This document shows positions 37,393 through 55,477 of a stretch of DNA of 62,419 nt, one piece after another. The stretch covers positions 1 to 62,419 of the forward strand of contig JALSIC010000056.1 in the NCBI GenBank assembly GCA_026981935.1. The letters are read 5' to 3'. How positions within the stretch are numbered: position 1 is the stretch's first letter; every line of letters starts with the position of its first letter. The stretch is from Gammaproteobacteria bacterium (GTDB lineage Bacteria; Pseudomonadota; Gammaproteobacteria; SZUA-140). Below the pieces are notes generated by a model. The model had not been told where the DNA came from. It searched no databases and saw nothing but the letters and a program-made list of their open reading frames with translations. A program made the position numbers and the translations under genes.

Positions 37393-37427
37393 AGAGTGAG
37401 GGCGGTTTACGCCCTCACTCTTTCTTG
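37393..37427 (+). terminator. Intrinsic terminator after the dihaem cytochrome gene
   Basis: 12-bp stem AGAGTGAGGGCG/CGCCCTCACTCT followed by TTCTTG. Confidence 0.75.
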
Positions 37428-37602
37428 TATAAACGCTTTTTGCTATCCTGTCTTCTGCCCGTGGTGCCCTTGTTGTTTGTAATTACCCCACCATGGGAGA
37501 GGTGACGTCTGCCATCCTCCGCTTATTCTCGGTCCTTGTTACGAGGCAAGGGTTCGGGGACAGGCCTAATATCACATCATTTGCCAGCAGGACGAGCGTG
37601 TC

Positions 37603-39224: not shown

Positions 39225-39228
39225 ACAA

Positions 39229-39687: not shown

Positions 39688-39963
39688 TGCTCCACGGTAA
39701 GGGTTTTCATTGCGGCTGTTTTGCTTGTGATATCCCGGCGGGCGCGCCCCCGCCGCGAAGGGGACAGCTTTTCCAGCAAGCCCTGAAGATTTGAGGGATA
39801 GAAATGATGCCGGAACAATTTGAGGTTTACATTAACCATCGTGTAGCCTGCAGGCCCTCAAGGCCGGTATCCAGGGGAAGGCACCACTCATCCTGACAGC
39901 TTCGTGTAGCATGAATGCGGGCTCCCGCAGCCGGGATACAGACCCCGAGCCCCGGCATCCTCT

Positions 39964-40136
39964 TGTCATTGCCACCACACCTTTGTCATTTCGGCCATGC
40001 TTCTTTGTCATTTCTCGATACGCTCGAAATGACAGGGATAGTGTCATTCCCACCGTGCCTCCTTGCCATTGCCGCCACGCTGCCTTGTCATTGCGACCTC
40101 ACTTTCTTGTCATTTCCCGCTACGCTCGAAATGACA
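39964..40136. repeat. Array of seven TGTCATT-initiated units, including two TGTCATTTC-N11-GAAATGACA hairpins (GTCATT-type REP-like)
   Basis: TGTCATT/TGCCATT at 39964, 39984, 40006, 40042, 40064, 40086, 40108; hairpins 40006-40034 and 40108-40136. Confidence 0.75.
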
Positions 40137-40272
40137 GGCGTCACCTGGAACGACAACCGTCAACTGAAAACAATGAATCTCAACTATTGAAACTGACACG
40201 AGTGACCGATGGTCGTCATACAGACTGGATGCAGGGCACGAGGGCCGGAAGCGTGGGAAAGGTGGCTTTCAT

Positions 40273-40463
40273 CCCGGATTCCGTTTCGCTTCATCAGGCT
40301 ATGTATGTCAGGTATTTACTGAGGGTCTCGTAGTTGAATGGACAGGGTCCGGCTGTAAGTGCGCCGGTTTGGTAGCCTGTATGAAGCGCTGCAAGAGCGC
40401 AATCCAGGAAACCAGACGGCAAAACCCCCACACCCGGATTACGTTTCACTCCATCCGGGCTGC
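40273..40463. repeat. GTAG-type REP-like elements (one single plus an inverted doublet)
   Basis: GTAGCCTGTATGAAGCG...AATCCAGG (40372) with inverted CCCGGATTACG...CATCCGGGCTGC (40433-40463), and CCCGGATTCCG...CATCAGGCTAT (40273-40302). Confidence 0.7.
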
Positions 40464-40538
40464 ACATTTTGATGTGGACAATTATGAGACCATTAATCAA
40501 GTAATGCTCAATAGGCAATCGTGTGGTGGAACAGGCCT

Positions 40539-41129
40539 TCAGCTGACGATCACACGTTCCAGTTCCATGAAAGTCTTGGCGATATCTGCCGGTTCTATGG
40601 GAACGCCCATTTGACGGCCGATCTGGGTGGCCGAGAAGATACCACAGACTTCCATGACTTTCGTTGACTCGTTGCGGTTCACCACGATGGCGTGGTGGCG
40701 GCCGTTCTTGAGGAGGGTTTCGATGATGTCGCCGACCCGCGCCTCCTCGACGTCCCTGAGCATCAATACCTCGAGACGGTGGGCAGGCGTCATGATGTCA
40801 CCCACCCGGACTTCGTCGCGCGAGCAGTGCATCTTCTGCATGTGCAACATGGGTTTCTCGCCGAGAATATCGGCGGCCGTGATGATACCGCAGATGGCAT
40901 CGTCGTCATCGGTCACCAGCAGGAGCCGTACATTATTGAGGATCATTTGCTGGTTGCATTCATCCAGTGAAACCTGCGGCCGTGTGGTATGGGTTCTGGT
41001 GCGGCGCAGATCGGTCATGACATTGATGGCAGGGTCGTCCGATGTGACATGCAACAAGCTCGGCTTGGACAGATAGCAGATGTCTCCCATGCCCAGCAAA
41101 GTCGTGCGGAGTGCGCGGTACGGCTTCAT
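40539..41129 (-). CDS. CBS-domain protein
   Basis: PAINVMTDL, VRLLLVTD..ICGIITAADILGEKP, VGDIMTP, GRHHAIVV. Confidence 0.88.
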   Translation of the reverse strand: MKPYRALRTTLLGMGDICYLSKPSLLHVTSDDPAINVMTDLRRTRTHTTRPQVSLDECNQQMILNNVRLLLVTDDDDAICGIITAADILGEKPMLHMQKMHCSRDEVRVGDIMTPAHRLEVLMLRDVEEARVGDIIETLLKNGRHHAIVVNRNESTKVMEVCGIFSATQIGRQMGVPIEPADIAKTFMELERVIVS

Positions 41130-41385
41130 GATGGAGTGCCCTCCTCTTGGTAATTGTCAGGCCAGCTGTGGACCTTGCAATGGGATTATACGCATCGTCA
41201 ATACAACGGTTGAGTGCCAGGATCAGGATTGCCATGCCCCCGATGATTTTGTAGACTAAAATGGTCGGTTATTGCCATGCACTTAGTGTGCCTTTAAGGG
41301 ATCACACAACCCGGTTCTGAGGGGGATCGTGGGGGAGCATGGAGACCAGGCGAGTATTGATAATAAAACCCAAGGAGATCTCAAA

Positions 41386-41463
41386 ATGAAACTGAATGTT
41401 CTGGTGTTGCTCTTCATTCTCGCTTTCTTCATCTTCGTTATCCTTCCTGCCACTACCATCTAA
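41386..41463 (+). CDS. Unannotated 25-aa hydrophobic microprotein (MKLNVLVLLFILAFFIFVILPATTI)
   Basis: AAGGAG RBS 8 nt upstream; followed by a GC hairpin at 41480-41515. Confidence 0.55.
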   Translation: MKLNVLVLLFILAFFIFVILPATTI

Positions 41464-41585
41464 TTAAGTGCAATAAGGGCCCTCGGTCTGGGCAGCGCCA
41501 TGCCCAGGTCGAGGGACTGCGTTCTAAGGATTGCTGCTTTCAACGACCATCCGCGGCCATTTCTCTCGCGCGTTTGCGTTTCAGA

Positions 41586-42011
41586 TTAGGCTTCCCAGTC
41601 GGACTCGTCGGGATAGATCATGGGATTCTGATTGATGCGCCACATTTTGTGATGCGGCGGCTCCATGCCTTCGTCGTGGCAGGATTCCAGGCTGTGTTCC
41701 TCAGAGATGTCACAGACCAGAGGCGCATCTCCCATCGTGGCCTTGAACTGATACGGGAGGGTGCCGCATTGGTTCTTCCCCGTCGGAGAGCAGCTCTTGA
41801 CGCGGAACATGCCATAGAATGGATCTCAGCCTATGGCGCCTGTCAGTATCGGGTACACTGGCAGCAGCAGGGCATAGGTATCCCAGAAAGCGGCCTTGCT
41901 GACAGTGGCAACGATGAAGTAATAGGCACCCGCCACCAGGATGATACCAAGTACCAGGCGAAACAGCCTGTCAGCCAGGCCGATATTCTGAAACGGCTCA
42001 TGGTGAGTCAT
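41586..42011 (-). pseudogene. DUF2892/YgaP-like membrane protein interrupted by an in-frame TGA at 41826-41828
   Basis: QNIGLADRLFRLVLG...LTGAIG*DPFYGMFRVKSC...NQCGTLPYQ reads continuously in one frame across the stop. Confidence 0.75.
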
Positions 42012-42203
42012 ACTTGATGTGTTCAAGGCGATCACCTTCTTTACTGTGGTGATATGACACATCAGCTATTGGAACATGAGACGGCACGCCCTTCAGTAAC
42101 ATCGCTACATTGGGAAAACATGTTTTGATGCCTGCACGCGAGCGCAACAGCAGGTCCCGGTCAAGGGAGGGACAATGCCGCTTCTCAGCGATGAGCAAAG
42201 TGA

Positions 42204-42458
42204 TCAAGACTCATCCTGTCTCGATGGCTCCTTGTTCTGCAGGCTCTGCATATACAGGGCGTGCAGGCGGCGGCGGCGTACGATATTGCGGGCCATAAAT
42301 CCCATGGCGATGGCGCCGATGACAACGACAATGAACATGACGGTATTTTCCGTGCGTTCGCTGACCAGCCCGCCGATGAACATATGAACCGTGTAGGCAA
42401 GCAGTGTCAGTGAGCTGATGCCCACAATGCTGTAAATGATGATTTCCTTCTTGTCCAT
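42204..42458 (-). CDS. Small 2-TM membrane protein (84 aa)
   Basis: MDKKEIIIYSIVG...YTVHMFIGGLV...; two hydrophobic helices and a basic C-tail. Confidence 0.7.
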   Translation of the reverse strand: MDKKEIIIYSIVGISSLTLLAYTVHMFIGGLVSERTENTVMFIVVVIGAIAMGFMARNIVRRRRLHALYMQSLQNKEPSRQDES

Positions 42459-42899
42459 GATTCTAAGGTGTTTCCTTAAGCAGGTTAGGTGGGCCTTCGT
42501 AACCGGACAGTAAATGGTTGGCGCTCGTTTTTCCCTGGGTTGGACGATGGCCCTGTAATGAATGATAGACGTCAAGGTATAAGATTGCTGTGTCAGGATC
42601 GCAATGGCAAGGGGTTATTCATCGACACAGGTGGTCGTGAAGACGTGACAGTCGGCTAAAGGGTGCTTGAGCCAGTCATCAAGCTGAGATGTATCAGGTG
42701 CAGTCTAAGGCAAGGGGCGGCAAATTTATGACGCACAGTACGCTGTCCCGATTTCAATATGATACATGAGTAAAATGATCATATTCAATATCTGTTTGAT
42801 TACAAAGATGTATTTTTGTTTGAGTCAAGACAGGCAATGAGCCTGCCCGGGTGGATGGGGTAACCGGGAAACGGGCGCAAAACAGGCCTGGACGGGAGC

Positions 42900-42927
42900 T
42901 TGCAAAATCCGGAATTAGGTCTATAAT
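42900..42927 (+). promoter_or_regulatory. Candidate sigma70 promoter TTGCAA-N16-TATAAT for the oxidase operon
   Basis: Consensus -10 and near-consensus -35, about 140 bp upstream of ORF 43068. Confidence 0.5.
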
Positions 42928-43067
42928 CCAATGTCATGCGGGGAGTCTAAGTCTGACTGTTTGCGCACGGAAAGCATCCGCTGAGCAGGGTTGAACCAGC
43001 GACCTGGCTTGGCATTCAGCTGCTTTCACTCAACAACTTACAACGTAGCAAAAAATAAGGGGGGAGT

Positions 43068-43358
43068 ATGGAAAACAAGCTCACTGTAGGTAAGATCTTC
43101 TGGGTTCTCCTGATACCCGCATTCACCGTCGGCATGGGCAACGGCAGTGTGTTTGGTGCGGCGGTGATGTGTGCTGTAGGTCGCGGGCCTTACGAGAGCT
43201 GGGGCGGCTGGGGTGCCGAAGGCTACGATCCCACCACTTTCAGTGGATTCATCAACTGGATGATGATTCTCTTTGGCGTGGCCTTTTCAATCATACTTGC
43301 GCTGGCCTTGAAGAAGCACGGCGAAATCGAAATGCAGCGTGATAACACAGGTTGGTGA
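43068..43358 (+). CDS. Small membrane protein preceding ccoN (96 aa)
   Basis: GGGGAG RBS; 2 TM segments, GMGNGSVFGAAVMC and GGWG. Confidence 0.8.
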   Translation: MENKLTVGKIFWVLLIPAFTVGMGNGSVFGAAVMCAVGRGPYESWGGWGAEGYDPTTFSGFINWMMILFGVAFSIILALALKKHGEIEMQRDNTGW

Positions 43359-43591
43359 ATGTTGCGCGCAAACAGGCAAACAGGCTTGAATATAGCTGAA
43401 CTGGTAACGAAATCTAGGGGAGGGTAAAAATTATGTTGGCAGCGTTTGCAGGAGCATGTGGCGTGATTCTCGCTTTTTCCAGCATGTGGTTTTCCTGGTA
43501 CTTGCTGAACAAGATGTCCGAGTGAGCGCATAGAGTGAAAGGGAATCATTCGACTATAACAAAATCGATTTAGTGTAGGAGGGCTGGAAGG

Positions 43592-45001
43592 ATGCTGTTA
43601 AAATACCTTTTTGCAAAGAACGAAGATATCCCGCCAGGGACAGCAACGATCTTCTTTGGGTATTCTTCGATTTTTTGGTTCGTTATCGGAACCGGTATCG
43701 GCTCATTTAACGCTGCAAAGCTCGCGTTTCCAGATTTTGTGACGGGAACCGAGCTTTTTGCGTTTGGGCACATGCGCCAGGTGCATGTGCTGGCAGTGAT
43801 TCTGGGCTGGATCTCCATGGCCTTTGCCATGACCATGATGTACATGACGCCTGCCCTGGGCAACACGAAACTGTGGTCGGAAAAGCTGGGCTTGTGGACG
43901 GCGATGAACTGGAACATCGGTCTGTCGCTGGGTCTGTTTCTCCTCTGGATGGGATTTACCTCCGGCCGCGAGTATTCTGACCTCATCTGGCCCATCGACC
44001 TGGTGGTGATCTTCGGTGTGCTGTTGCCTCTGGGTATCAATGTCTGGATGACAATTGCCCACCGAAGGACTCAGGGTATCTACATCACCAACTGGTTCTT
44101 TGGCGCCTGTATCTTCTTTGTTATCGTGGTCTTTGTCGTTGGCCAGTCCGCCGAGCTGTTCAACCTCACGGGGCTGACGGAGGGCTATCTCACCTTCTGG
44201 TTCGCTCACAACGTGTTGGGGTTGTGGATCACGCCGGTAGCGGCGGCCATCGCTTACTACACGATTCCGAAATTGACGGGTAACCCGCTGTACTCGCACC
44301 GGATCGGTCACCTCCACTTCTGGGCGATCATCGCCTTCTATTCCACACCGGCTTCGCATCACCTGCTTGCGGCTCCGCTGCCCGAGTGGTTGAAGTCCTT
44401 TGCCTCAGTGGAAGGCGTGCTGATCCTGATCCCGGCCGTTGCCTTCGTGGCCAACATCCTGCTGACCATGAAGGGCCGCTGGAGCATGTTCGTGGAGAAT
44501 GTGGAGATCAAGTTCTCGGTGACGGGCGTGCTGCTCGCCATTCCCCTGAACATGCAGGGTGGCTTCCAACAGACCCGCGCCATCAACTGGTATGTTCATG
44601 GCACGGGATGGATCGTGGCGCACGCGCACCTGGCCTTGCTGGGCATGTCCAGCTTCCTTGAGATTGCGGCAGTCTACTTCGGCCTGCAGCAGATGCTGCG
44701 CAGGAAGCTGTATTCGCTGGCCCTGGCCAATTTCCACTACTGGTTCGTGATCATCGGTTTCTGCATCTACTGGATCTCCATGACCATCGCCGGTCTGATC
44801 CAGGGCGCAGGGAAGATCTACGAAGTACCGTATATCGACGTGGTTATCGCCGAGCACCCGTACATGATCGCCCGCTGGGTGGGTGGCACCATGGTCTTTA
44901 CGGGTAACCTCGTCTGGCTCTACAACATGTACATGACGGCAGTCGAAGGCACCGTGGTGCCCAAGGGCCGCTATGCACATGAGCTGGCCTACGAGAGATA
45001 A
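43592..45001 (+). CDS. ccoN: C-family (cbb3-like, divergent/distal type) haem-copper oxidase subunit I
   Basis: All six His ligands: RQVH (II), WFAHN (VI), FYSTPASHH (VII; Tyr six residues before HH as in C-family), WIVAHAH (X); GREYSD Ca-loop. Confidence 0.9.
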   Translation: MLLKYLFAKNEDIPPGTATIFFGYSSIFWFVIGTGIGSFNAAKLAFPDFVTGTELFAFGHMRQVHVLAVILGWISMAFAMTMMYMTPALGNTKLWSEKLGLWTAMNWNIGLSLGLFLLWMGFTSGREYSDLIWPIDLVVIFGVLLPLGINVWMTIAHRRTQGIYITNWFFGACIFFVIVVFVVGQSAELFNLTGLTEGYLTFWFAHNVLGLWITPVAAAIAYYTIPKLTGNPLYSHRIGHLHFWAIIAFYSTPASHHLLAAPLPEWLKSFASVEGVLILIPAVAFVANILLTMKGRWSMFVENVEIKFSVTGVLLAIPLNMQGGFQQTRAINWYVHGTGWIVAHAHLALLGMSSFLEIAAVYFGLQQMLRRKLYSLALANFHYWFVIIGFCIYWISMTIAGLIQGAGKIYEVPYIDVVIAEHPYMIARWVGGTMVFTGNLVWLYNMYMTAVEGTVVPKGRYAHELAYER

Positions 45002-45064
45002 TCGCAACGATAAATTGCGAGTGGAAACAGGCAGGAGACATAAGTTATCCAGCCCTTTATAAAT

Positions 45065-45086
45065 CCCCCCGGCGCAAGCCGGGGGG
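45065..45086 (+). other. Strong intercistronic hairpin between ccoN and ccoO
   Basis: CCCCCCGGC-GCAA-GCCGGGGGG: 9-bp stem, GNRA loop, no U tract. Confidence 0.6.
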
Positions 45087-45116
45087 TGACTAAAAATAAC
45101 AGGGGAGGAATGAGAA

Positions 45117-46073
45117 GTGGCATTTCAACAATATAAGCTAGGAACAGCAGGGATCGGGGCAATGCTCGGGCTGTCTATGTCCATCACGCTGTTTTTCCCG
45201 AGCTGGGACTTCAGGTCTGCAGAATCGACCTGGGTGGGTCTGGACAAGTCCCTCTCCAATGGGCGCGTGATCGGATGGTCGTATGAGGATCCCCTGGTGC
45301 GTGGTGATGGTAAGCCGATTACGGTGATATTAAACAAGGATCCAAAAACCGGTGAAGAATTCGACCCAGCGATTCGCGCTTATGTTTATAAGCCAGGTAC
45401 TCCCTTTGCTGCGGTGGTGAATCACCCTGACAACCTGGGTCCGACGGTGAAGAGCCTCAGCATCAGCAAGGGTAAAATTGATCAGGCTGAGAAAAGCGCT
45501 GGTGCTGTGTTCATCATCAGCTATGCCGATGTGAACGGTGAGGAGTGGGCCTATGTTGAAAACGCAACTGCAACAAGAGGATGGACGCCGAGCCAAGTGC
45601 TGAACTCCACCGATGAAAGTCAGCATAAATATGTGGGTAAAGGAAAGACCGTTTATATCACTGAGGGTTGCTGGTGGTGTCACACCCTGCTGCCCGAGCA
45701 TACCCAGGACTGGCAGGTCTTCGGGTGGCCTCCCTACGTGGGTGACATGAACGGTGAGATGCCCACGGCATTTGGCTCTGACCGCAAGGCACCGGATTTG
45801 TTGCACGTAGCCTCTCGCAACTCGTCCCGTGAATGGATGATGCTGCACTTCTTCAACCCACGTTTGGTTCAGCCCAACTCCATCATGCCTCGTTTTGATT
45901 ATCTGTGGGGCAAGACAGACGCCAACGGCAATCCCATCGATTTTGCAAAATGGCGTAAGGAGTACGATGAATATCGTAAAGGGCTGCGAGCATATCCACC
46001 AGAGGTGCCTGAATATGCGCCTGACACCGAGATCAGGGCCTTGATCGATTGGATTTTGACCAGCTTAAAATAA
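45117..46073 (+). CDS. ccoO: cbb3 subunit II-like monohaem cytochrome with a large extra periplasmic insertion
   Basis: N-terminal TM; GKTVYITEGCWWCHT, GSDRKAPDL, HFFNPRLVQPNSIMPRF match the CcoO pattern; 318 aa. Confidence 0.85.
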   Translation: MAFQQYKLGTAGIGAMLGLSMSITLFFPSWDFRSAESTWVGLDKSLSNGRVIGWSYEDPLVRGDGKPITVILNKDPKTGEEFDPAIRAYVYKPGTPFAAVVNHPDNLGPTVKSLSISKGKIDQAEKSAGAVFIISYADVNGEEWAYVENATATRGWTPSQVLNSTDESQHKYVGKGKTVYITEGCWWCHTLLPEHTQDWQVFGWPPYVGDMNGEMPTAFGSDRKAPDLLHVASRNSSREWMMLHFFNPRLVQPNSIMPRFDYLWGKTDANGNPIDFAKWRKEYDEYRKGLRAYPPEVPEYAPDTEIRALIDWILTSLK

Positions 46074-46092
46074 TAAAGCGGAGGGCAGTATA

Positions 46093-46740
46093 ATGGGATG
46101 GAAATTTGACAATCCTCTTTATACCCTGGCGGATGAAGAGGAAGTGAACAGGATGATCCAGCTGTGGGAGGCCGAGAAGCCGGGTGGCATGTGGGAAGGC
46201 AACAACCGCCTGCCCTACCCCATCACCTACCTGCTGGCGCTGATCATTCTTACGGCCTTTTTGATCACCATGCCGATCTGGGGGCAGCGTCCCACGGCAG
46301 AGTTGTATGCACCTATGGTGGAGCTGATGGACTCGCCGGAGGTGCAAAACATGGCCACCGACGAGGAGAAGATCGCATACCTGACAAAGCGAGCCATGGA
46401 GGTGCTCGAGACGTCAGATGATTCCAGGCTGCCAGGGCTCTTGGAAAGGCATCCGATCTCATGGCTTGACCTGCAGCTGATTGCGCCTGCAATCCGCGAA
46501 ATCGCATCATCTGGTGGACCCTACGGCCTGGAAAGCTATAACGTGATCGGCGACCAGGTTGTGCTGGCCAACTTCGAAGGCAACTGGCGCGAAGACGGTC
46601 TGCGTGAGCGCGTTCAGCCATGGTGGGACAAGGGTTTCACCATTGATGTCTTCTATGTGACCTATTTTATTATTGCCATGGTCATTGTCTGCAAGCGCTT
46701 GCCGCCTTACCAGCGCAAGCCTGACATGTCCAAGGTCTGA
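46093..46740 (+). CDS. 2-TM protein with a CcoP/FixP-N-like N-terminus but no haem motif
   Basis: GGMWEGNNRLP + TM resembles the FixP N-terminal G-I-x-E-x-x-N-P-L-P; no CxxCH. Confidence 0.7.
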   Translation: MGWKFDNPLYTLADEEEVNRMIQLWEAEKPGGMWEGNNRLPYPITYLLALIILTAFLITMPIWGQRPTAELYAPMVELMDSPEVQNMATDEEKIAYLTKRAMEVLETSDDSRLPGLLERHPISWLDLQLIAPAIREIASSGGPYGLESYNVIGDQVVLANFEGNWREDGLRERVQPWWDKGFTIDVFYVTYFIIAMVIVCKRLPPYQRKPDMSKV

Positions 46741-46770
46741 GCTGGGTGTATATGAGAGGAGAGAATAATC

Positions 46771-46920
46771 ATGATTGATATCGATTTCGCACCCACTGTA
46801 TTTGCATTTATCATACTTGGCGTTTTGATCCTGCCGGCATGGTACGGCTTTGCGATGGTCGATAAATACTGGCAGAAGCATAAAGCCGAGGACTCAGATG
46901 ATGTGGATGCTTTCAACTGA
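46771..46920 (+). CDS. Unannotated 49-aa single-TM protein (CcoQ-like size and position)
   Basis: GAGGAG RBS; MIDIDFAPTVFAFIILGVLILPAWYGFAMVDKYWQKHKAEDSDDVDAFN; directly before a terminator. Confidence 0.7.
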   Translation: MIDIDFAPTVFAFIILGVLILPAWYGFAMVDKYWQKHKAEDSDDVDAFN

Positions 46921-46955
46921 GATCTAACGGTCTCGCAACAGGGGACCGTCTGTCG

Positions 46956-46995
46956 AAATGCCGCTGGCCAGTTTCTGGTCAGCGGCATTTTCTTT
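46956..46995 (+). terminator. Intrinsic terminator closing the ccoNO operon
   Basis: AAATGCCGCTGGCCAG-TTT-CTGGTCAGCGGCATTT then TCTTT. Confidence 0.8.
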
Positions 46996-47286
46996 GTGAC
47001 CACTATAGTTTCAGGTCTGAAAAGTTACCGTTAATGAAATCAATATGTTAACAGTTTATTGTGTGAGATACAGAAATGAAGGCCCAGGTTGATAATCCTG
47101 CAGGGATAGCTGCTTTACATTCAGAAGGTATGCGCATATAGTAAGCAGTACCCCATAACTTGTTGGTTTGCTGTCACTTCCGGGCAACACTGTCCTGAAT
47201 TTTCAGTATGAAAAAACGGTGGATCCATTTGGAAGCTCATCCGGGTCTTGCGATGTCTGACCGCACAGAATCATGGTAAGGGATAA

Positions 47287-47625
47287 ATGCTGGAACTGAT
47301 GCTTGACAGCATGATACAGCTGAGCAGTTTACTCGATCCAGGTCTGCTTTTTTCAGTTGCGGTGCAGACGGCACAAAATACAACCATCTGGGGTGTTGAT
47401 CTTAGCATCGAAAGCTTGAGATCCCGGAAGTACAGTATTGGGATATTTGTATTCCTTGTCATTTCCCTGATCATTTTTGCCTTTATCATTTACATGTACT
47501 GGCCACAGAAAGGCAAAGAAAGGCTGAAGCGGGGAGAGAAAATCATGCTGGGTGCCATCATCATGGGAATGGTGTTTGCGGTCCTGTTTGGATGGCTCCA
47601 GCTAATCGAGGGTTACCTTGTGTAG
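47287..47625 (+). CDS. Small membrane protein (2 TM); start uncertain
   Basis: Two strong helices separated by GKERLKRGEK; head of a tightly packed operon. Confidence 0.7.
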   Translation: MLELMLDSMIQLSSLLDPGLLFSVAVQTAQNTTIWGVDLSIESLRSRKYSIGIFVFLVISLIIFAFIIYMYWPQKGKERLKRGEKIMLGAIIMGMVFAVLFGWLQLIEGYLV

Positions 47626-47637
47626 GAGGCGGATCAG

Positions 47638-47928
47638 ATGAGACAGTTCATAGAATCACTGCCGGATGGCTGGACGATTTATGTCTGGATGATTGCGGCC
47701 GCCGGCATCCTGGTCGGCGCTGTATTCATGTTGCGCTGGGCAGCCAAGAACAAGCAGTTCGATGAAGATATCAAATATGTGGTATTCGATGAAAAGGACA
47801 AGGACAAGATGGAACCTGAGGAATATGAAAAGAGCCGGGAGGTCATTGCGCATCAGGAAGAACTGCGCAAGGAATACCTGAGGAAGAAAGCAGATCGCTA
47901 TGCACAGCAACGTCAGCACAAGCAATGA
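47638..47928 (+). CDS. ccoS: CcoS/FixS-like cbb3 maturation protein
   Basis: TM followed by WAAKNKQFDE, matching the FixS W-A-x-x-x-G-Q-F-D-D pattern; AGGAGG RBS. Confidence 0.7.
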   Translation: MRQFIESLPDGWTIYVWMIAAAGILVGAVFMLRWAAKNKQFDEDIKYVVFDEKDKDKMEPEEYEKSREVIAHQEELRKEYLRKKADRYAQQRQHKQ

Positions 47929-48434
47929 AAAAGGGTGAGAAATACACCTACATATTCATAGCCGTTCTCGTCATCGTAATGGCAACATACCGAGGCTATC
48001 ACGAGATAACAGATCCCGATCCAGGAATACCGTTCTATACGACGGCTGCACCGGAGCTGAAACGTGAAGCAGAGCTGATCTACAAGAAATATGAATGCTC
48101 CGATTGTCACGCCTTATGGATGGTGAGAAACATGATGCAGAATGTACCCGCGCCTGCCCTGGATGGCATCGGGTCTTTGAAGACCGAGGACTGGTTTTAC
48201 AAGTACTTGTCTGCTGAGAATCCCCAGTCCATATTGCCAACCCGTCTGAAGGATGAATACAAGATGCCATCCTACGCTCATATACCTGAAGAGGAGCGGC
48301 GTCTCCTGGCAGCGTATCTTGCCAGCCTGAAGGTCGAGGACTGGTTCCTGGAGGAAACCAGGCGGATGGAATACGAAAAACTCACTGGGAAAAAGTATCA
48401 AGCGTCAGTAGCAGGTAATGAACAGGCGCGTTAA
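47925..48434 (+). CDS. Membrane-anchored monohaem cytochrome c
   Basis: TM, CSDCH, PALDGIGS, KMPSY (Met ligand). Confidence 0.88.
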   Translation: MKKGEKYTYIFIAVLVIVMATYRGYHEITDPDPGIPFYTTAAPELKREAELIYKKYECSDCHALWMVRNMMQNVPAPALDGIGSLKTEDWFYKYLSAENPQSILPTRLKDEYKMPSYAHIPEEERRLLAAYLASLKVEDWFLEETRRMEYEKLTGKKYQASVAGNEQAR

Positions 48435-48909
48435 GCAACGTCTCATGGATGCTTTGGTCGCATTAATCGCGGTCAGCGCTGGTGCGATTGTAATTTATGT
48501 GGGCGATATGCTACTGGGTGTGAGGCTGGAGCTGTTTTACGGCCTTTCGACCTTTACCCCCCTTTGGGCCATAGACCTGTTCCTGGTACCGTTTATCGGT
48601 GGATTTGTTGTCTCTCTCATCTATGGCCTGGGCGGGAAGATCCTGGCACATTTTTCACCACTGATCGTGCGGCTGATCAGTTATTACCAGCTGCACATAG
48701 CCTCAGAGGTTCCGCCACAGGGCGCTGAACTGTTGCCCATGAGTTACTGGATCCTGGTGGTTATCGTGGCGGTTGAGTTTGCAGCTATTGGAGGTGTTGT
48801 CGGCGAGGTGGTAGTAAAAAAGACATATGGTCGTGAGGGAACACCACGCCAACAACGGCAAAAGCGGAGACACCGAAGATCAGGTGGGTCTGAAGTTCAG
48901 AAGATCTAA
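48418..48909 (+). CDS. Hypothetical 4-TM membrane protein
   Basis: Hydrophobic 163-aa ORF overlapping the upstream gene. Confidence 0.75.
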   Translation: MNRRVKQRLMDALVALIAVSAGAIVIYVGDMLLGVRLELFYGLSTFTPLWAIDLFLVPFIGGFVVSLIYGLGGKILAHFSPLIVRLISYYQLHIASEVPPQGAELLPMSYWILVVIVAVEFAAIGGVVGEVVVKKTYGREGTPRQQRQKRRHRRSGGSEVQKI

Positions 48910-48913
48910 AGTC

Positions 48914-49981
48914 ATGGAACTGAATTACGTCAAGCGCAAGATTGAAATCGACGGAGAGCAGGTCGAACAGAGAAAGCGTTTTCTTGGTGCCACGTTCGTT
49001 ACGGCTATTGTTCTGGCCTTGATTGGTGGCACGGTTCATGTGCTGACGCTGGGCTCCAACAGGATGCATGACATGCGCAGCAAGGTGTCCTATGACATTG
49101 AGGAGCTTGAGTCAAAGTTGAGGGCGGCAGGCGAGGAGCGCTTCAGGCAGACCGAGCACGAGTTCAAGGTTAATCAGGCGCGGAGCTATACGGTTGCCGA
49201 GGCCGAGGCCCTGCTGACGCCTGAACAGTGGGCCGAGCTGGAGACGATGATCGAGATTCCCGGTGGAACATTTCTCATGGGTACGAACTATCGTCGTGCG
49301 GACCCTCAGGACCAGCCCCAGCGGCTGATTGAAGTCGCTCCTTTCAAGATAGACAAATATGAGGTGACTAATGCCCAATACGCACGGTTCGTTGCCGCCA
49401 CTGGCCACCGCCCTCCCTTGCATTGGGAGAACGGGCGGATACCCGATGGGCTCGAGCTGCATCCTGTCACCATGGTCTCTTGGTTCGATGCGCTCAAATA
49501 TGCGCAGTGGGCAGGCAAGCGCCTGCCTTCTGAGGCGGAATGGGAGCGGGCCGCCCGGGGTACCGATGGCCGGCGCTGGCCGTGGGGGAACAGCATGGAT
49601 CCCAATCGCCTGAACACCTATTATCAAGTTGGATCAACGACTGTCGTCGGCTCCTATCCTGGTGGGGCAAGTCCCGAAGGGGTGTTGGACATGGCGGGTA
49701 ACGTGAGTGAATGGGTGGCAGATGATTTTCTGCCGTATCCTGGGTCCAGTGCGCCCCAGCACATGTTTCAGGCCAAGGTGCCGGTTTTGCCCGAGTCTGC
49801 CGCAGAGCGTTCACTGAAGGTCGTCGATTTTATCAACACCAAGGAGCGCTACAAGGTGATACGGGGAGGCTCGTGGAAGAGCGATCCTTTCTCTACCTCC
49901 GCTTATCACCGTAACTTTTCATGGCCGAATTTTGCCTCCAATTTCTTTGGATTCAGGTGTGCAAAGGATGTTGACTCTTAA
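48914..49981 (+). CDS. Membrane-anchored FGE-sulfatase (SUMF1/NirV-like) domain protein
   Basis: IPGGTFLMG, YEVTNAQY, HPVTMVSW, RLPSEAEWE, DMAGNVSEW, RGGSW, GFRC. Confidence 0.9.
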   Translation: MELNYVKRKIEIDGEQVEQRKRFLGATFVTAIVLALIGGTVHVLTLGSNRMHDMRSKVSYDIEELESKLRAAGEERFRQTEHEFKVNQARSYTVAEAEALLTPEQWAELETMIEIPGGTFLMGTNYRRADPQDQPQRLIEVAPFKIDKYEVTNAQYARFVAATGHRPPLHWENGRIPDGLELHPVTMVSWFDALKYAQWAGKRLPSEAEWERAARGTDGRRWPWGNSMDPNRLNTYYQVGSTTVVGSYPGGASPEGVLDMAGNVSEWVADDFLPYPGSSAPQHMFQAKVPVLPESAAERSLKVVDFINTKERYKVIRGGSWKSDPFSTSAYHRNFSWPNFASNFFGFRCAKDVDS

Positions 49982-50225
49982 ATGGATTGCCAGGCGCGCA
50001 GCCTGGATTGCAGGCCTCTTTGGCATGGGAGTTTCCAGTGCCCATGCCGTGGACAGCTACCGCTGGCTGCACGTGACCATTGATACCCCGTGGGCGATCT
50101 TTCTCTTTCTTCTCCCCATGGTACTGGTGCCCGTGGTGCTGATGGCCATCCTCTACTGGCGTTTTGCCATTCAAAAACCAGCGAAAAAGGGCAGCCAGCC
50201 CGAGGGTGAGGAACCACAAGAATAA
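49968..50225 (+). CDS. Small membrane protein with signal peptide + one TM
   Basis: SAHA-VDSYRWLHVTIDTPW followed by a hydrophobic helix; overlaps the upstream gene. Confidence 0.7.
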   Translation: MLTLKWIARRAAWIAGLFGMGVSSAHAVDSYRWLHVTIDTPWAIFLFLLPMVLVPVVLMAILYWRFAIQKPAKKGSQPEGEEPQE

Positions 50226-50259
50226 TCTCCGCCAGTTGTAAAGGAGGAAACAGGCAATC

Positions 50260-50652
50260 ATGGTGGCAGGGTTTGCGAGACAGGCAGGGAGAGCGATTTT
50301 CGCCGGGCTGGGTTTTGTTCTCATCGCGGGTACCGTCATGCTTATAGATAGGGTGCCTGCCTATGCCGCGGCAGCCCAGGGGGATCAGAGCCTGGAAGTC
50401 ATGAAGGGATTCACGGAGCAGGAGAAGGTCGAAAGCGACATCGTCAAGATATCGACCAAGAGAAAACACCAGATCATGTTTTTCATGGGCTTCGTGTTGC
50501 TCATCGGCATTATTGCAACCGCGGGGCTGGGTGTGGCCATGGTGCTGTTTGGCAAGGAAGTTTTTGTCGCACATATGGTTTGTGCCATTTTCAGTGTTTT
50601 CTTGTCGATCGCCCATGCGGTGGTCGCCATCGTCTGGTTTTTCCCTTTCTGA
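50260..50652 (+). CDS. Small membrane protein with His residues in TM helices
   Basis: GGAGG RBS; KHQIMF, FVAHMVC, SIAHAVV suggest possible haem b binding. Confidence 0.75.
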   Translation: MVAGFARQAGRAIFAGLGFVLIAGTVMLIDRVPAYAAAAQGDQSLEVMKGFTEQEKVESDIVKISTKRKHQIMFFMGFVLLIGIIATAGLGVAMVLFGKEVFVAHMVCAIFSVFLSIAHAVVAIVWFFPF

Positions 50653-50667
50653 ACTTAATCGATTCCC

Positions 50668-53307
50668 ATGCATTCCGGCTCCACGCTCGGCGCCTCCGTG
50701 AGCCATAGCGCGTGTGCGCGAAAATACGGCCTCTGGTTGCTGCTTGGCGTCTATTTCCTGTCCGGAGTGACCGGCGTGGCCTATGAGGTCCTCTGGGTCC
50801 GCATGCTGTCCATCCAGTTTGGGGTGAGCAGTTTCGGCGTCATCATGACCATTGCGGTTTTCATGGCCGGCCTGGGGCTGGGCAGTCTTGTGGGGACTCA
50901 TATATCGACGCGAGTGGCCAGGCCGTTATTGTTGCTGGCGGGGCTGGAGGCCAGTGTAGCCCTGTTCGCATTGTCCATGCCGTGGTTGTTTGGCGTGATT
51001 GACGGGATGCTGGGAGAAGTCGCCGCCTCCTGGCCGTTGTCACTGTGGTATCTCGTCCAGGCTGGCATTGCCTTTCTGCTTCTCTTTGTTCCTTGTCTTG
51101 CCCTTGGGATTGGTTTTCCGCTGGTACTCAGAATCGTGAGGGGGAGCGGGACGAGCCTGGCCGCGGTCTACGGTATCAATACCGTGGGGGGTGCCGTCGG
51201 TGCGCTGGCCCCCCTGGCCCTCCTGCCCCTGCTCGGCTGGTCCTATGCCATGCAGGCGGTGGCTGTGTTGGGCCTGCTGGTCGCAGGGGCTTTCGGCCTT
51301 CTTGCGCAGTTTAAGGTTCTGCCCCATGCAGCCCCACCCTCGCATGCGACGCAGCGACCTGGCTGGACTGTCCTGTTGGTCTACGGGGCCATAGGTGCGG
51401 CTGCCCTGATGGTGGAAATCGGCTGGACCCGCCTCTATGGTATGATTCTTTTGCGCACGGAATATGTGCTGGCCATTATTCTGTTCATATTTCTCGCAGG
51501 TATCGGCTTGGGAAGTCTGCTGGCGCGCTGGTTGCCCCCGCGCCTGGGATTGCAGTGGTTTCCCCTCTTCGCCGCCCTTGCGGGGCTGTACAGTCTCTGG
51601 GGGCTCACCGCCCTGGCAGCCTGGGCCGGTAACGCACATTTCGACTCCCTCTTTCAGGCCATGCTCATGCAGGGACTGGCCCTTGCCTTGTTGACCTTGC
51701 CCCTTACCCTGATCCTCGGTGCCTGGCTGCCCTTGCTGGTACGCCGACTCGCGGGTGGAGAGCCGCTGAGCGGCGCCTGGCTGTATGGCGCCAATGCCGT
51801 GGGTGCTGCCCTGGGGGCAGTGGCCTGTGGTTTTCTTCTCGTACCTGCCGTGGGGACGGCGGCCACGATTGCCCTGGCGTCGATTCTGTTGTTTACGTTT
51901 GGCATGCGCTGGTCGCAGCAGCGCTGGTTGTGGCTGGCAATGCCCTTGCTCATCGTCGCTGCCTGGCCGCTGCAGCGTCTGCCCCCGGTGAAGGCGCTTC
52001 TGCCCAAGCATGCCGAAAGCCGGCAGCTCATGCTCTATGAAGATGCGATTTCCATCACCCACGTTATTGAAGAGCCGGACGGCCAACGCATCCTCCTTTC
52101 TGATCTGCGCAGAATGGACGCCTCCACTGAACCGACCGCGGTCGTGGTGCAGAAAAATCAGGCCCGCCTGCCGCTGTTGCTGCATGGCAGCCCTCGCACG
52201 GTCTTGTTTCTGGGGCTGGGGACCGGCATCAGCGCCTCAGCGGTTCTCGCCTTGCCGGGCACGGAGACCACAGCGGTGGAACTGTCCTCGGGGGCTATCA
52301 GCGCGGCACGGTCTTTTTTTGCGCCGGTCAACGGCGGGGTCGTGGAACGAATCAGGGTGGTGCACGATGACGCACGGCGTTATTTGCGCGCCGGCGAGGC
52401 GCGCTACGATGTCATTGTCGGTGATCTGTTTCATCCGGATATGGTGGGGCGCAGCAATCTGCTCTCGGTCCAGCAGTTCCGCCGGGTGCGGGAGCGGCTC
52501 GCCGATGGTGGCGTGTATGTGCAATGGCTGGCCTTGAACCAGTTCGACCGGGAGACAGTGGCGACGGTCATGCGCAGCTTCCAGCAGGTTTTTCCCCATG
52601 GTGCGCTCTATCTGGACGGCTTTCGCCTGGCGCTGGTGGGCCCGTCAGAGCGCATGGCCTCTTTGCTGGCCCGGGCCCAATCCGCCTGGCAACAACGACT
52701 CTCGGAGGCGCAGAGAGAACGTCTCACGGGAGGGGAGGGAATCTGGACCTGGCTGGGGAGATATTGGGGGCCCATCCGCATGCTGCCGGGGCCGCTCCAG
52801 GATGAATGGGCGCCGCAGATCGAATTCAGACTGCCGGCCCTGCGTTACGGGAACGGCATGGAGCTGGCCGCCACCCTCGAATGGCTGCTGGGCCTGCGGC
52901 CTTCCCCGGAAGAGGCGGGTCGTCAGCTTGGTCTGAATTCGGGGCCAGACCATGAATCCTTTGAGAGAGCCTATATTGCCACGGAACTTGCTGCAAGAAG
53001 CTGGCTTGCGGCATTTCGAGGCCACGCGGGAGAGGCGCAACGCCTCATCCGGTTTGCCTACGAGGCCAATCCCGATGATCGCTGGGTGGGGTACGATCTG
53101 GCGGACAGGATCTATGCCTCTCTTTCACAGTTGGCAGAAGACGACCGGTATGCCGTTCTGGACAGGATCCTGACGATTCGTCCTGACCATGTCCAGGCCT
53201 TGAAGGCTATGCTCAGGCTGGAACTGGCACGCAATCCTGATTCTCCCGCCATCGAACGTTACCGGGAAAGGTTGCGAAAAATCAGTCCCCTTGGGCATCT
53301 TCCCTGA
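50668..53307 (+). CDS. Fused MFS-like membrane domain / spermidine-synthase-like SAM-binding domain protein
   Basis: SGVTGVAYEVLWVR and a duplicated TM block; FLGLGTGIS, VELS, DDARRYL, YDVIVGDLFHP; helical C-tail. Confidence 0.88.
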   Translation: MHSGSTLGASVSHSACARKYGLWLLLGVYFLSGVTGVAYEVLWVRMLSIQFGVSSFGVIMTIAVFMAGLGLGSLVGTHISTRVARPLLLLAGLEASVALFALSMPWLFGVIDGMLGEVAASWPLSLWYLVQAGIAFLLLFVPCLALGIGFPLVLRIVRGSGTSLAAVYGINTVGGAVGALAPLALLPLLGWSYAMQAVAVLGLLVAGAFGLLAQFKVLPHAAPPSHATQRPGWTVLLVYGAIGAAALMVEIGWTRLYGMILLRTEYVLAIILFIFLAGIGLGSLLARWLPPRLGLQWFPLFAALAGLYSLWGLTALAAWAGNAHFDSLFQAMLMQGLALALLTLPLTLILGAWLPLLVRRLAGGEPLSGAWLYGANAVGAALGAVACGFLLVPAVGTAATIALASILLFTFGMRWSQQRWLWLAMPLLIVAAWPLQRLPPVKALLPKHAESRQLMLYEDAISITHVIEEPDGQRILLSDLRRMDASTEPTAVVVQKNQARLPLLLHGSPRTVLFLGLGTGISASAVLALPGTETTAVELSSGAISAARSFFAPVNGGVVERIRVVHDDARRYLRAGEARYDVIVGDLFHPDMVGRSNLLSVQQFRRVRERLADGGVYVQWLALNQFDRETVATVMRSFQQVFPHGALYLDGFRLALVGPSERMASLLARAQSAWQQRLSEAQRERLTGGEGIWTWLGRYWGPIRMLPGPLQDEWAPQIEFRLPALRYGNGMELAATLEWLLGLRPSPEEAGRQLGLNSGPDHESFERAYIATELAARSWLAAFRGHAGEAQRLIRFAYEANPDDRWVGYDLADRIYASLSQLAEDDRYAVLDRILTIRPDHVQALKAMLRLELARNPDSPAIERYRERLRKISPLGHLP

Positions 53308-53661: not shown

Positions 53662-54429
53662 TCAGCGGAAACTCAGGTGCAGCATCCGTCCCCCGGTTTT
53701 CTGGGCCAGGGTCCTGTATTCGAGCTCCGTATCGGGATCGGAGCGCCCCATGGGCAGGGTGAAAACGGGGCTGGGTATCTCGCTGTAGTGAATGGTGTCA
53801 TCCGAGGGCTCATCTCCGATGAGCATGTAGACCCCGGGGACCGGTGCATCCCGTGCTGCCACCCGGAAGGCACGACCGATGGTTTCCCGGTTTCCCACGA
53901 AGGGTGCTTCGCTCATCAGATTGTCGAACATCTCGCCCATGGTGCCCTGGTAAGTGACGGCCCTTTTGTCCGAGAACCAAGTGATGGCGTTGAGTTCCTT
54001 GTCCGCGCGCGTGACGATGAGGCGCAGGATGGGAACGAGGAACATGGAGGCGCCATGCATGGATCCCGATGCATCGACGATCAGGTGGATGTCCCTGCCA
54101 GGCATCTTCTTGAGCCCCTCGATGAACATCTCGAAGTCTTTCTTCCCCACCTGGGCGGCCTCCAGGATGGTTTCCACCTGGGTCTCGGGATCGGTGAGCA
54201 CCACCCTCTGGAAGTTTTTCTTCAGGCGCTCGCGATCCGACTCGGCGAGCTGCAGCTGTTCCTGGAGCATTTCCACCTGTTTTTGCAGTTTGGGAAGTTC
54301 GTTCTCCTCGGCGAGCCGGCTGGTGATCAGGATGGTGACCAGGAGAAAGACGAAAGTCGCCAGCATCAGCAGCGCGACGTCGGAGAAGCTTTCATGGACG
54401 TTGCTGGTGGTCTTGCGGATCTTGGCCAT
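53662..54429 (-). CDS. MotB/ExbD-like TM helix + coiled coil + vWA domain protein
   Basis: ESFSDVALLMLATFVFLL (Asp at the helix start), coiled coil, MIDAS IVDASGSM...ETIG...IGDEPS. Confidence 0.8.
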   Translation of the reverse strand: MAKIRKTTSNVHESFSDVALLMLATFVFLLVTILITSRLAEENELPKLQKQVEMLQEQLQLAESDRERLKKNFQRVVLTDPETQVETILEAAQVGKKDFEMFIEGLKKMPGRDIHLIVDASGSMHGASMFLVPILRLIVTRADKELNAITWFSDKRAVTYQGTMGEMFDNLMSEAPFVGNRETIGRAFRVAARDAPVPGVYMLIGDEPSDDTIHYSEIPSPVFTLPMGRSDPDTELEYRTLAQKTGGRMLHLSFR

Positions 54430-54466
54430 GACAGCCGGCTCCCGGGTCGTAAGGCGGTGGAGCGGG

Positions 54467-55477
54467 CTAGCCACCCCGCAGGGCACGTCGCAGCCTGCCC
54501 CACCATGAGCGGTTGATGCGGTTGATCATCTGGATCTCCTTCTTCAGAAGATCAGTATAATACATTTGCAACACAACGGAATCGCGCAGCGTCTTGTTCC
54601 GGTCTTCCGTGTCATTGAGTTGGTTGAGATGGGTGGCCTCCTCGCGGAACTGCTGCATGGCGATCTTGGTGTCGTGCAGGGCGTTACGCAGCGTCTGAAC
54701 ATTGACACCCAGGTGTTCGATTTCCGCATTGAGCGCCCGGATATCCCGTTCCATGGTGGGCTTGCAGTCGGAGGCGCAATAGACCATGCAGATCTTTTTC
54801 AGGGTATCGGAAAGATTGTGGATACCGCCATCCGTGATGAGGGCGAATACCCGCAGGATCACCCCGCCCAGCACCGAACCCAGGAGGGTGGTATAAAAAG
54901 CGGTGCCCATCCCTCCCATGGCCTTGCGCAGGCCCGAGAGCAGGCGCTGCTGATCTTCTCCCAGCGCCTCCAGGGAGGAGGTCAGTCCGGCCAGCGTCAG
55001 GGTGAGTCCGATGACCGTCCCGATGAGGCCCAGGGTGATGAGAAGATTGCCGATAACCTCCACCACGTGGCTCTTGCGATGGTAATCGGCGAGTTCCACA
55101 TCGATGAGGGCCTCGATGTCGGGCTGGGCGTTCTTTGACAGCACCTCCTTGAGCGCCAGGAAAAAACGCTGTACCGCATGCTCGTTGTCGTCGGGATTGA
55201 TGCCGGGGAGACTGTCCTTCTTGGCGATATTGCCCAGCCTGACAGCCTCGCTGGCCTCGTTCGTAATGGAAATGGTCAGGGCAAAGCTGACGGCCACCCC
55301 CATGCCGAACAGGCCCATGATGACCCAGGTGATCCGGCTTTGGTCCTGGCGTATGAAGTCCCACAGGTTGGTATCCAGGTACAGGAGAAAATAGACGGCG
55401 ATTGCCGTGCCGGCCCATCCCAGCCAGAGTATCAGGGCGCGGTAGGATTGCTCGTGAACCAGCCGTTTGCTAGCCAT
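54467..55477 (-). CDS. MotA/TolQ/ExbB proton-channel family protein with C-terminal coiled coil
   Basis: LITLGLIGTVIGL and GMGTAFYTTLLG signatures. Confidence 0.88.
   Translation of the reverse strand: MASKRLVHEQSYRALILWLGWAGTAIAVYFLLYLDTNLWDFIRQDQSRITWVIMGLFGMGVAVSFALTISITNEASEAVRLGNIAKKDSLPGINPDDNEHAVQRFFLALKEVLSKNAQPDIEALIDVELADYHRKSHVVEVIGNLLITLGLIGTVIGLTLTLAGLTSSLEALGEDQQRLLSGLRKAMGGMGTAFYTTLLGSVLGGVILRVFALITDGGIHNLSDTLKKICMVYCASDCKPTMERDIRALNAEIEHLGVNVQTLRNALHDTKIAMQQFREEATHLNQLNDTEDRNKTLRDSVVLQMYYTDLLKKEIQMINRINRSWWGRLRRALRGG

Follow-up and report, generated by a model that had tools for sequence, protein, structure and literature searches.

A two-gene candidate ion-driven motor with a von Willebrand factor A-type head and its partial association with a divergent cbb3-like oxidase cluster in Gammaproteobacteria

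Background

What does an ion-driven membrane motor act upon when its axle ends in a domain of von Willebrand factor A (vWA) type? This question is raised by two adjoining genes on contig JALSIC010000056.1 of a Gammaproteobacteria bacterium (assembly GCA_026981935.1, GTDB lineage SZUA-140), of which positions 1 to 62,419 were analysed and are called here the window. The upstream gene encodes a protein of the MotA/TolQ/ExbB family (the A subunit) and the downstream gene a partner (the B subunit) with a membrane helix that carries an Asp, a predicted helical stalk and a predicted vWA head; the two genes, referred to together as the pair, lie beside a long cluster of genes for a divergent cbb3-like oxidase. 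The best explanation that we can offer, to which we give a probability of about 50%, is that the pair is an ion-driven two-component motor accessory to this oxidase module.

Ion-driven motors of 5:2 stoichiometry power flagella, TonB-dependent import, the upkeep of the envelope by Tol-Pal, gliding, and Zorya defence. For motors whose axle itself ends in a vWA domain we know of no function or client proposed beyond a guess at gliding. Such motors entered the literature as a prediction only in 2025 (PMC12204202). The pair is a clean and compact version of them, made of two genes, one axle protein and about 590 residues in total and found in about 200 species, and the oxidase cluster, which has been flagged as a possible "alternative complex IV" in electroautotrophs, gives a vWA motor a concrete candidate context; with the pair, the question of what vWA motors pull on becomes directly testable.

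Results

The two proteins of the pair

The A subunit is MotA/ExbB-like, as an initial annotation of this DNA had proposed. It matches the Pfam family MotA_ExbB (PF01618) with an E-value of 1.1e-10 and 41.7 bits (cut-off 22.9); the MotA, MotP and ZorA models of NCBIfam are matched weakly, all far under their cut-offs, and the ZorA profiles of PADLOC are also matched weakly (best E-value 2.7e-9), in hits over residues 132-291 that reach into the C-terminal extension. Five further MotA_ExbB genes are present in the source genome and all score far higher, which makes the A subunit a sixth, divergent paralogue. Its AlphaFold2 (AF2) model, which like the alignments and column counts given below was built on 30 homologues, has four long membrane-type helices and a mean predicted local distance difference test score (pLDDT) of 81.7, and the top rows of a Foldseek comparison of this model with the PDB are ExbB, TolQ, MotA, ZorA and PomA chains (best E-value 1.9e-3).

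Conservation is highest in the core composed of the third and fourth transmembrane helices (TM3 and TM4) and the loop between them, and this is also the part that aligns to PF01618 and to the A subunit of L111, a related locus described in the last section. Both motifs that had been quoted for the protein, GLIGTVIG and GMGTAFYTTLLG, are present and fall in invariant or near-invariant columns, and T154, T192, T197, G153, G157 and G191 are among the invariant positions of the core. The C-terminal coiled-coil tail that had been read in the protein stood in part: a helical extension exists, but AF2 places helices at residues 176-233, 242-287 and 293-334, that is, a prolonged TM4 followed by a hairpin and not a single long coiled coil. 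Charge counts are net acidic for the loops 36-48 and 166-186 and basic for the N-terminus, which fits the topology of MotA with the C-terminal hairpin predicted in the cytoplasm.

The open reading frame (ORF) of the B subunit as listed begins at GTG 54486. ATG 54429 is most likely its true start, to judge from the sequence, because a probable ribosome-binding site lies at a short distance upstream and because the homologues begin at the corresponding Met. The Asp helix noticed earlier, ESFSDVALLML, is present, and Asp17, the conservation of which had been set as a test, is found in 30 of 30 homologues, as is F15, with E13 and S16 in 29 of 30 each. The Pfam ExbD family matches the protein with an E-value of 0.042 at best, and an SHLS motif was not found in its N-terminal 40 residues. 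AF2 gives helices at residues 11-78, 81-91 and 96-107, with pLDDT of 49-75 over the stalk, which has weak profile matches to GCN4 and tropomyosin coiled coils among the PDB sequences (E 0.012-0.44). Longer or fused forms of the B subunit were found nowhere among 2396 candidates, which is weak evidence.

In its AF2 model the C-terminal domain of the B subunit is a vWA fold; the mean pLDDT is 79.7, and values of 83-94 cover most of residues 101-250. vWA domains fill the top rows of the Foldseek comparison with the PDB, where 103 matches lie at E <= 0.001, and include VWF A2, CLCA1, TFIIH p44, integrin I domains, ANTXR2 and a Bacteroides aerotolerance protein; the structure rows of the ESM Atlas carry PF00092/PF13768. 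A vWA domain that had been read from a DASGS motif alone is thus recovered at the level of the predicted fold. The motif itself lies between strand 113-119 and helix 122-141, its canonical position, and D119 and S123 are found in 30 of 30 homologues, position 121 being Ser in 15 and Thr in 15. D206 (30/30) follows directly on the fourth strand (residues 200-205), and the loop ahead of helix 184-194 contains E182 (30/30) and T183 (22/30). Judged by the secondary structure of the model alone, D119, S/T121, S123, D206 and E182/T183 would occupy the canonical positions of a MIDAS, an adhesion site that depends on metal ions. His115 and His125, which flank the MIDAS-like loop, are invariant, and residues 38-255 contain no Cys in any of the 30 homologues. 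PADLOC returned no family for the B subunit, thus neither vWA nor ZorB.

As to orientation, the 16 residues before Asp17 contain on average 3.8 Lys and Arg against 1.2 Asp and Glu, and residues 38-53 contain 3.4 against 3.2. This charge bias, together with the MotB-like location of the Asp, at the helix's N-terminal end, argues for a B subunit with its N-terminus inside and its head outside, so that the vWA head is very probably periplasmic; the topology put forward in the initial annotation is supported in this sense, as a prediction from sequence.

Distribution and gene pairing

Homologues of the B subunit number 484 at E <= 0.001 among clusters at 90% identity, and those among the 120 matches listed are all 235-278 residues long, every named one being a "hypothetical protein". 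A profile search of 1.84 billion representatives at 50% identity returned 36 hits, which comprise essentially one full-length cluster, fragments, and a few distant vWA proteins, and among which there was no named relative that was informative. About 200 species genomes encode a relative; 80 loci, 53-85% identical, were kept from 200 relative-encoding stretches of a species-level genome collection and form with the window the set of 81 loci used below. The carriers are nearly all metagenome-assembled genomes (MAGs), assigned to Gammaproteobacteria, Chromatiales, Chromatiaceae, Ectothiorhodospiraceae, Thiotrichaceae and Ca. Tenderia. Within the order of the window the pair is present in 32 of 36 genomes, and in 24 of the 25 of high quality, being single-copy in most. 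The class was sampled evenly with 401 genomes, of which 28 match the B subunit strongly (E 2e-93 or better) and seven only marginally (E 0.002-0.01), which indicates a sharply bounded family.

The pairing of the two genes is strict. A MotA-like gene lies directly upstream of the vWA gene on the same strand in 80 of the 81 loci, window included, and at the sole exception, L018, about 30-46 bases of upstream flank are present. Every locus has one vWA gene (81/81), which implies a homodimeric axle, and no gene of ExbD/MotB type occurs among the conserved neighbours of the pair. Very probably the two proteins form a motor complex of the MotAB/ExbBD/TolQR kind.

Association with the oxidase supercluster

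The oxidase supercluster of the window (Table 1) starts with two genes for cytochromes c, which are followed by a truncated CcoN-like gene, a thioredoxin-like gene, and the genes for a CcoN-like protein (43592-45001) and a CcoO-like protein (45117-46073); next come small FixQ/FixS-like ORFs and the genes for a cytochrome c, for an FGE-sulfatase-like protein and for a fused MFS/spermidine synthase (50668-53307). The CcoN-like protein scores 226 bits with TIGR00780, the cut-off of which is 583, and the CcoO-like protein 57 bits where the cut-off is 201. The supercluster matches the cbb3-1/cbb3-2 region of Ca. Tenderia electrophaga, which a preprint presents as a stretch of about 30 genes, conserved and "containing cbb3-1 and cbb3-2", and discusses as "a sort of alternative complex IV"; MotA, ExbB and TolQ have zero occurrences each in that preprint (10.1101/2022.05.06.490989).

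At least one gene of the supercluster lies within 10 kb of the pair, in the flanks examined, in 39 of the 81 loci, and in 22 of the 35 that have at least 9 kb on both sides. Two arrangements account for the linkage, 13 of the 81 loci being too short to class. The first, seen in 19 loci, is convergent: the pair faces the 3' end of the cluster, where the fused MFS/spermidine synthase, a CcoG-like gene, a truncated CcoN and a hydrolase-like gene are located. The second, seen in 18 loci and likely in three more, is divergent, with the pair pointing away from the 5' end and its cytochromes c. Both arrangements occur on each side of the root of the B subunit tree, a quick maximum-likelihood IQ-TREE reconstruction with midpoint rooting, where each label needs at least 4-5 changes.

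Co-occurrence was examined in the same 401 genomes. Identity to the CcoN-like protein of the window is bimodal, since it is 77-100% in 27 genomes, 56-57% in two, and about 30% in the rest, the proteins of which we take to be ordinary CcoN. Pair and CcoN clade occur together in 25 genomes, the pair only in three, the oxidase only in two and neither in 371, in a table that is a plain count of genomes and in which absences from MAGs are unreliable. A pair found mostly without the oxidase, which the phylogenetic profile might have revealed, is therefore not what was seen: 25 of the 28 pair-bearing genomes have the clade. Among the three others, the contig of G120 breaks off within the first cytochrome gene of the cluster, immediately next to the pair, G259 has the pair on a contig of 3.3 kb, and G300 holds fragments of the fused MFS/spermidine synthase. 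G120 and G259 were dropped as counter-examples for these reasons, and so was G005, an apparent case of missing CcoN in which one of two matches like the truncated CcoN lies 1.9 kb from a contig end. The carriers span 14 family codes, perhaps one lineage, and 13 families hold both the pair and the oxidase.

Other genes and features of the window

The coordinates of the features are collected in Table 1. The window encodes two small truncated CcoN proteins, at 38192-38722 (+, 176 residues) and 56336-56851 (+, 171 residues), both of which cover COX1 positions of about 300-433 only; the second has an AHAH stretch that resembles the one of the full CcoN-like protein and which is presumably the helix with two haem ligands. 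In G109, a genome that has the oxidase cluster, the second truncated CcoN-like gene and the PF20603-like gene adjoin the CcoG-like end of the cluster. The G+C content is 0.49-0.60 over the oxidase cluster and the pair (36000-60000), whereas positions 1-34000 have 0.59-0.70 and the part at 60-62 kb has 0.68.

Table 1. Features of the pair and of its surroundings in the window
Feature	Position	Strand	Remarks
A subunit: MotA/TolQ/ExbB-family protein	54467..55477	(-)	336 residues, four predicted membrane helices
A subunit, TM3-loop-TM4 core, residues 138-215	54833..55066	(-)	best-conserved part; GNLLITLGLIGTVxGL + GMGTAFYTTLLG
A subunit, C-terminal extension predicted cytoplasmic, residues 216-336	54470..54832	(-)	TM4 extension and helical hairpin (AF2)
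B subunit: transpore-helix/stalk/vWA protein	53662..54429	(-)	255 residues and stop codon
Likely ribosome-binding site of the B subunit gene	54439..54443	(-)	GGGAG, 9 nucleotides before the ATG
B subunit, membrane helix, residues 17-37	54319..54381	(-)	first residue Asp17 (codon 54379-54381), preceded by ESFS
B subunit, predicted helical stalk, residues 38-107	54109..54318	(-)	long helix to about residue 78, then two short helices
B subunit, predicted vWA-fold head, residues 108-255	53665..54108	(-)	strands and helices from E113 to H244 in the AF2 model
B subunit, MIDAS-like loop	54061..54075	(-)	D119-A-S/T-G-S123, then invariant M124-H125-G126 (column counts, 30 homologues)
Divergent cbb3-like oxidase supercluster	36448..53307	(+)	Pfam and NCBIfam hits; convergent on the pair
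Second truncated CcoN-like gene	56336-56851	(+)	divergent from the pair; Pfam COX1 E 9.8e-11, profile positions 309-413
PF20603-like gene	56841-57374	(+)	divergent from the pair; 25.8 bits (cut-off 27)

Some genes accompany the pair in part of the loci. A small ORF for a predicted lipoprotein of about 135-150 residues, convergent and directly after the vWA gene, is found in 20 of 81 loci (for example L001:10775-11221, (-)) and not in the window; some of these loci have no oxidase gene in range. Its product could interact with the vWA head as a partner. In 21 of 81 loci (for example L039:10876-12510, (+)) the pair has a same-strand neighbour that encodes a polytopic membrane protein of about 500 residues with no Pfam or NCBIfam hit; this gene immediately precedes the MotA-like gene or immediately follows the vWA gene. 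Upstream of the pair, the window holds a gene for a dynamin-family GTPase of 673 residues (57381-59402, (-); Dynamin_N E 4.9e-16, PADLOC LeoBC E 5.1e-16), and a dynamin-like gene lies on the strand of the pair in 8 of 81 loci. Farther on, at 59874-62240 (-), is encoded a 788-residue protein with BNR/Ycf48-like repeats and a DUF11 domain, a relative of which is upstream in 7 of the 80 other loci.

Discussion

A possible mode of action can be outlined by analogy with known motors. A ring of the MotA-like protein, presumably a pentamer, would surround two copies of the B subunit, with the ion-binding Asp17 on the N-terminal helix of each copy inside the ring, and the flow of protons (or sodium) past Asp17 would turn the ring against the axle. 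A helical stalk of about 6 nm, if residues from about 38 to 78 form one helix, would carry the compact vWA head into the periplasm, where the MIDAS-like site (D119, S/T121, S123 and D206, with E182/T183) may hold an acidic residue of a client protein; in this way membrane potential would be converted into torque or pull on the client of the vWA head. As such a stalk is too short for the outer membrane, the client would lie on the periplasmic side of the inner membrane, at its surface or close to it. The oxidase supercluster, co-inherited and often syntenic with the pair, offers the best candidate context; in that case the pair would serve this respiratory module as an accessory, acting in its assembly, repair, positioning or regulation. 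That the client belongs to the supercluster has, in our estimate, slightly less than an even chance, and a more specific version, in which the pair is dedicated to the "alternative complex IV" of electro- and lithoautotrophic Gammaproteobacteria and the vWA head of a rotating axle grips a periplasmic subunit or an assembly intermediate of this complex, so that it is assembled, repaired, metal-loaded or gated, appears to us rather unlikely.

A number of results weigh against an oxidase-serving vWA motor. On the side of the proteins, the Foldseek comparison of the A subunit model with the PDB has zero rows at E <= 0.001; for the B subunit, Pfam shows no vWA family at E-values up to 10, NCBIfam up to 1 gives no vWA model bar a 22-residue patch, and a sequence profile search of the PDB gives no vWA chain. 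The Thr position of the MIDAS is Thr in 22 of 30 homologues only. On the side of the locus, 42 of the 81 loci have no cluster gene within the flanks examined, and 28 loci lie amid housekeeping genes (GltBD, HemE, NUDIX, fructosamine kinase, Mpl). In every linked locus pair and main cluster are encoded on opposite strands, which excludes co-transcription, and in two genomes pair and CcoN share a contig at a distance of 102 kb (G002) and 418 kb (G006). The oxidase-only genomes G109 and G304, members of the same family that are 99-100% complete and 1.4-2.1 Mb in size, keep CcoN and the fused MFS/spermidine synthase without B subunit or MotA-like gene, G109 having the complete oxidase cluster in one stretch. 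The neighbourhood of the related locus L111 shows no oxidase gene. Moreover, pair and oxidase alike come close to being core genes within a single set of related families, so that the two-by-two table may reflect very few evolutionary events, and shared ancestry could explain much of the co-occurrence. The link between pair and oxidase, as drawn in the initial annotation, is thus partly supported: it holds for the 39 linked loci and for 25 of 28 pair-bearing genomes, yet it is not obligatory, given the unlinked loci and the oxidase without pair in G109 and G304, and it is confounded by shared ancestry.

Some of these results speak for the same motor with another client. The pair would in that case be a general force transducer or tether of the envelope, like Tol-Pal or TonB, with partners at the level of the peptidoglycan or in the periplasm that are unrelated to respiration, and its partial synteny and its co-occurrence with the oxidase would be relics of shared ancestry within a single chemolithoautotrophic group of Gammaproteobacteria. 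The unlinked loci and their housekeeping neighbours, the opposite strands, the retention of the oxidase without the pair in two genomes and the paired-vWA locus L111 outside any oxidase context are all in its favour, and the lipoprotein ORF or the polytopic membrane protein could encode the true partner. Yet pair and cluster stay linked, in two arrangements, even where the partner proteins are only 53-60% identical, which would be unusual for unselected synteny, and two of the pair-bearing genomes outside the 25 with the CcoN clade show traces of the cluster; we consider a client unrelated to the oxidase unlikely, though a serious contender. An oxidase client could also be served by chaperoning, and the initial annotation had envisaged a periplasmic chaperone, driven by the proton motive force and analogous to NorQ/NorD, which would load metal into the haem-copper oxidase or remodel it. 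All that links the pair to the oxidase applies in full to such a chaperone, and the invariant His115 and His125 beside the MIDAS loop could alter its metal preference. CcoG is a cupric reductase for cbb3 oxidases, and a CcoG-like gene (TIGR02745, 102.6 bits, cut-off 316.7) is found on the strand of the pair, 1.2-1.5 kb downstream, in 12 of 81 loci; however, the opposite-strand lipoprotein ORF separates it from the vWA gene in those loci and in G109 it is on the own strand of the cluster, for which reasons it was rejected as an operon partner of the pair. NorQ/NorD, CbbQ/CbbO and CoxD/CoxE work with an ATPase in the cytoplasm and resemble the pair in the vWA fold alone, and G109 and G304 have the oxidase and no pair, so that a chaperone of this type seems improbable.

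A vWA protein might also work with a MoxR-type ATPase. The AAA+ families of MoxR/NorQ type, PF07726 and PF07728, have no match on the contig of the window, in agreement with the earlier remark that it lacks an AAA+ gene, and all hits of the genome are on other contigs; no MoxR- or NorQ-type gene was seen among the conserved neighbours of the pair either, and a MoxR partner was rejected. Finally, the vWA head may only anchor the axle to a fixed periplasmic partner, as MotB and ZorB are anchored to peptidoglycan, while the working output would be the cytoplasmic hairpin of the rotating ring, possibly in a Zorya-like sensor or defence system with the dynamin-like GTPase. The weak ZorA matches of the A subunit, its conserved cytoplasmic extension of 120 residues, which is absent in L111, and the LeoBC hit of the dynamin-like gene upstream in the window are compatible with such an arrangement. 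The partner has no ZorB hit in PADLOC, no ZorC/D/E-like genes occur among the conserved neighbours, and 73 of 81 loci lack the dynamin-like gene. Defence systems are typically patchy in distribution, and the pair is single-copy in most genomes, near-core in its order (32/36) and 53-85% identical across loci. The Zorya-like defence function was therefore rejected, and an anchored head with a cytoplasmic output is in general very improbable.

An ion-driven motor accessory to the oxidase module remains our preferred explanation. If its client is indeed the oxidase, the pair would be the first 5:2 motor that works on a respiratory enzyme and would provide the first client for any motor with a vWA partner of this kind; if the link reflects shared ancestry only, it is still a useful minimal model of vWA motors.

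Comparison with known motor and vWA systems

The architecture of the pair is not new. TolQ-like pentamers with transpore-helix vWA (TPH-vWA) partners have already been predicted (PMC12204202; Mol Biol Evol 2025;42(6):msaf138), so that the earlier statement that known 5:2 motors carry OmpA-like or ExbD domains is outdated, and the pair is a distant branch of this motor kind. According to that article, TPH-vWA genes are "predominantly found in heterologous pairs", with Proteobacteria and Verrucomicrobia as their main hosts, and AlphaFold 3 models of the motors put the Asp within a ring of Thr (PMC12204202). Two papers on stator diversity, PMC12505986 and PMC9389320, have zero occurrences of "vWA". 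The pair shares with the TPH-vWA systems, as described there, a MotA/TolQ/ExbB-family gene that adjoins the vWA gene, no separate tolR, exbD or motB gene, a helix with a conserved Asp and without the SHLS motif, and a proteobacterial range; in contrast to their heterologous pairs it has one vWA gene in 81 of 81 loci.

A representative of the paired type is L111, which surfaced as one of the marginal matches to the B subunit at class level and encodes a 264-residue MotA_ExbB protein followed by vWA proteins of 335 and 349 residues with FETVSD and YESFSD helices, the second of these containing the ESFSD motif of the B subunit; one of the two proteins is above and the other below the cut-off of Pfam VWA_2. 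With hhalign, the A subunits of the pair and of L111 align with a probability of 98.8 and 37% identity over 126 columns, and the B subunit helix aligns to the L111 helix with a probability of 95; the vWA domains did not align. Unlike the 335- and 349-residue proteins of L111, the B subunit has a small head, invisible to Pfam, of about 150 residues in a 255-residue protein, and the A subunit of the pair has an additional C-terminal hairpin of about 120 residues. Another locus, L112 (G136:C13, 4046-6011, (+)), has a gene for a 330-residue MotA_ExbB-like protein (E 0.0016, below the cut-off), then one for a 321-residue coiled-coil partner without a vWA hit, with an RmuC gene adjoining.

The ExbB-ExbD-TonB and TolQ-TolR-TolA systems turn membrane potential into periplasmic work by way of TonB or TolA, a third protein which extends to the outer membrane. 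The pair has the same A-subunit family and fold and an Asp-bearing partner helix, but here the Asp-bearing partner itself bears the output domain, on a short stalk, and the A subunit has four predicted helices, as MotA, where ExbB and TolQ have three. The likeness to MotA-MotB and PomA-PomB is closer in this respect, since it comprises a four-helix A subunit with a cytoplasmic domain and, in our prediction, a B subunit with a cytoplasmic N-terminus, the Asp at the inner end of the helix and a periplasmic C-terminal domain; a predicted vWA fold replaces the peptidoglycan-binding OmpA-like domain, and no flagellar context was seen. With ZorA-ZorB of Zorya the pair has in common the weak ZorA profile matches and a helical C-terminal extension of the A subunit, which at about 120 residues is far shorter than the tail of ZorA; it differs also in the lack of a ZorB match and of effector genes and in its core-gene distribution. 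Finally, NorQ/NorD, CbbQ/CbbO, CoxD/CoxE and the MoxR systems resemble the pair in having a vWA domain with a MIDAS-like site near genes for metalloenzymes. In contrast to these AAA+/vWA partnerships, no AAA+ gene is adjacent to the pair, its head is predicted in the periplasm with a tether to an ion channel, and its source of energy would be the membrane potential and not ATP.

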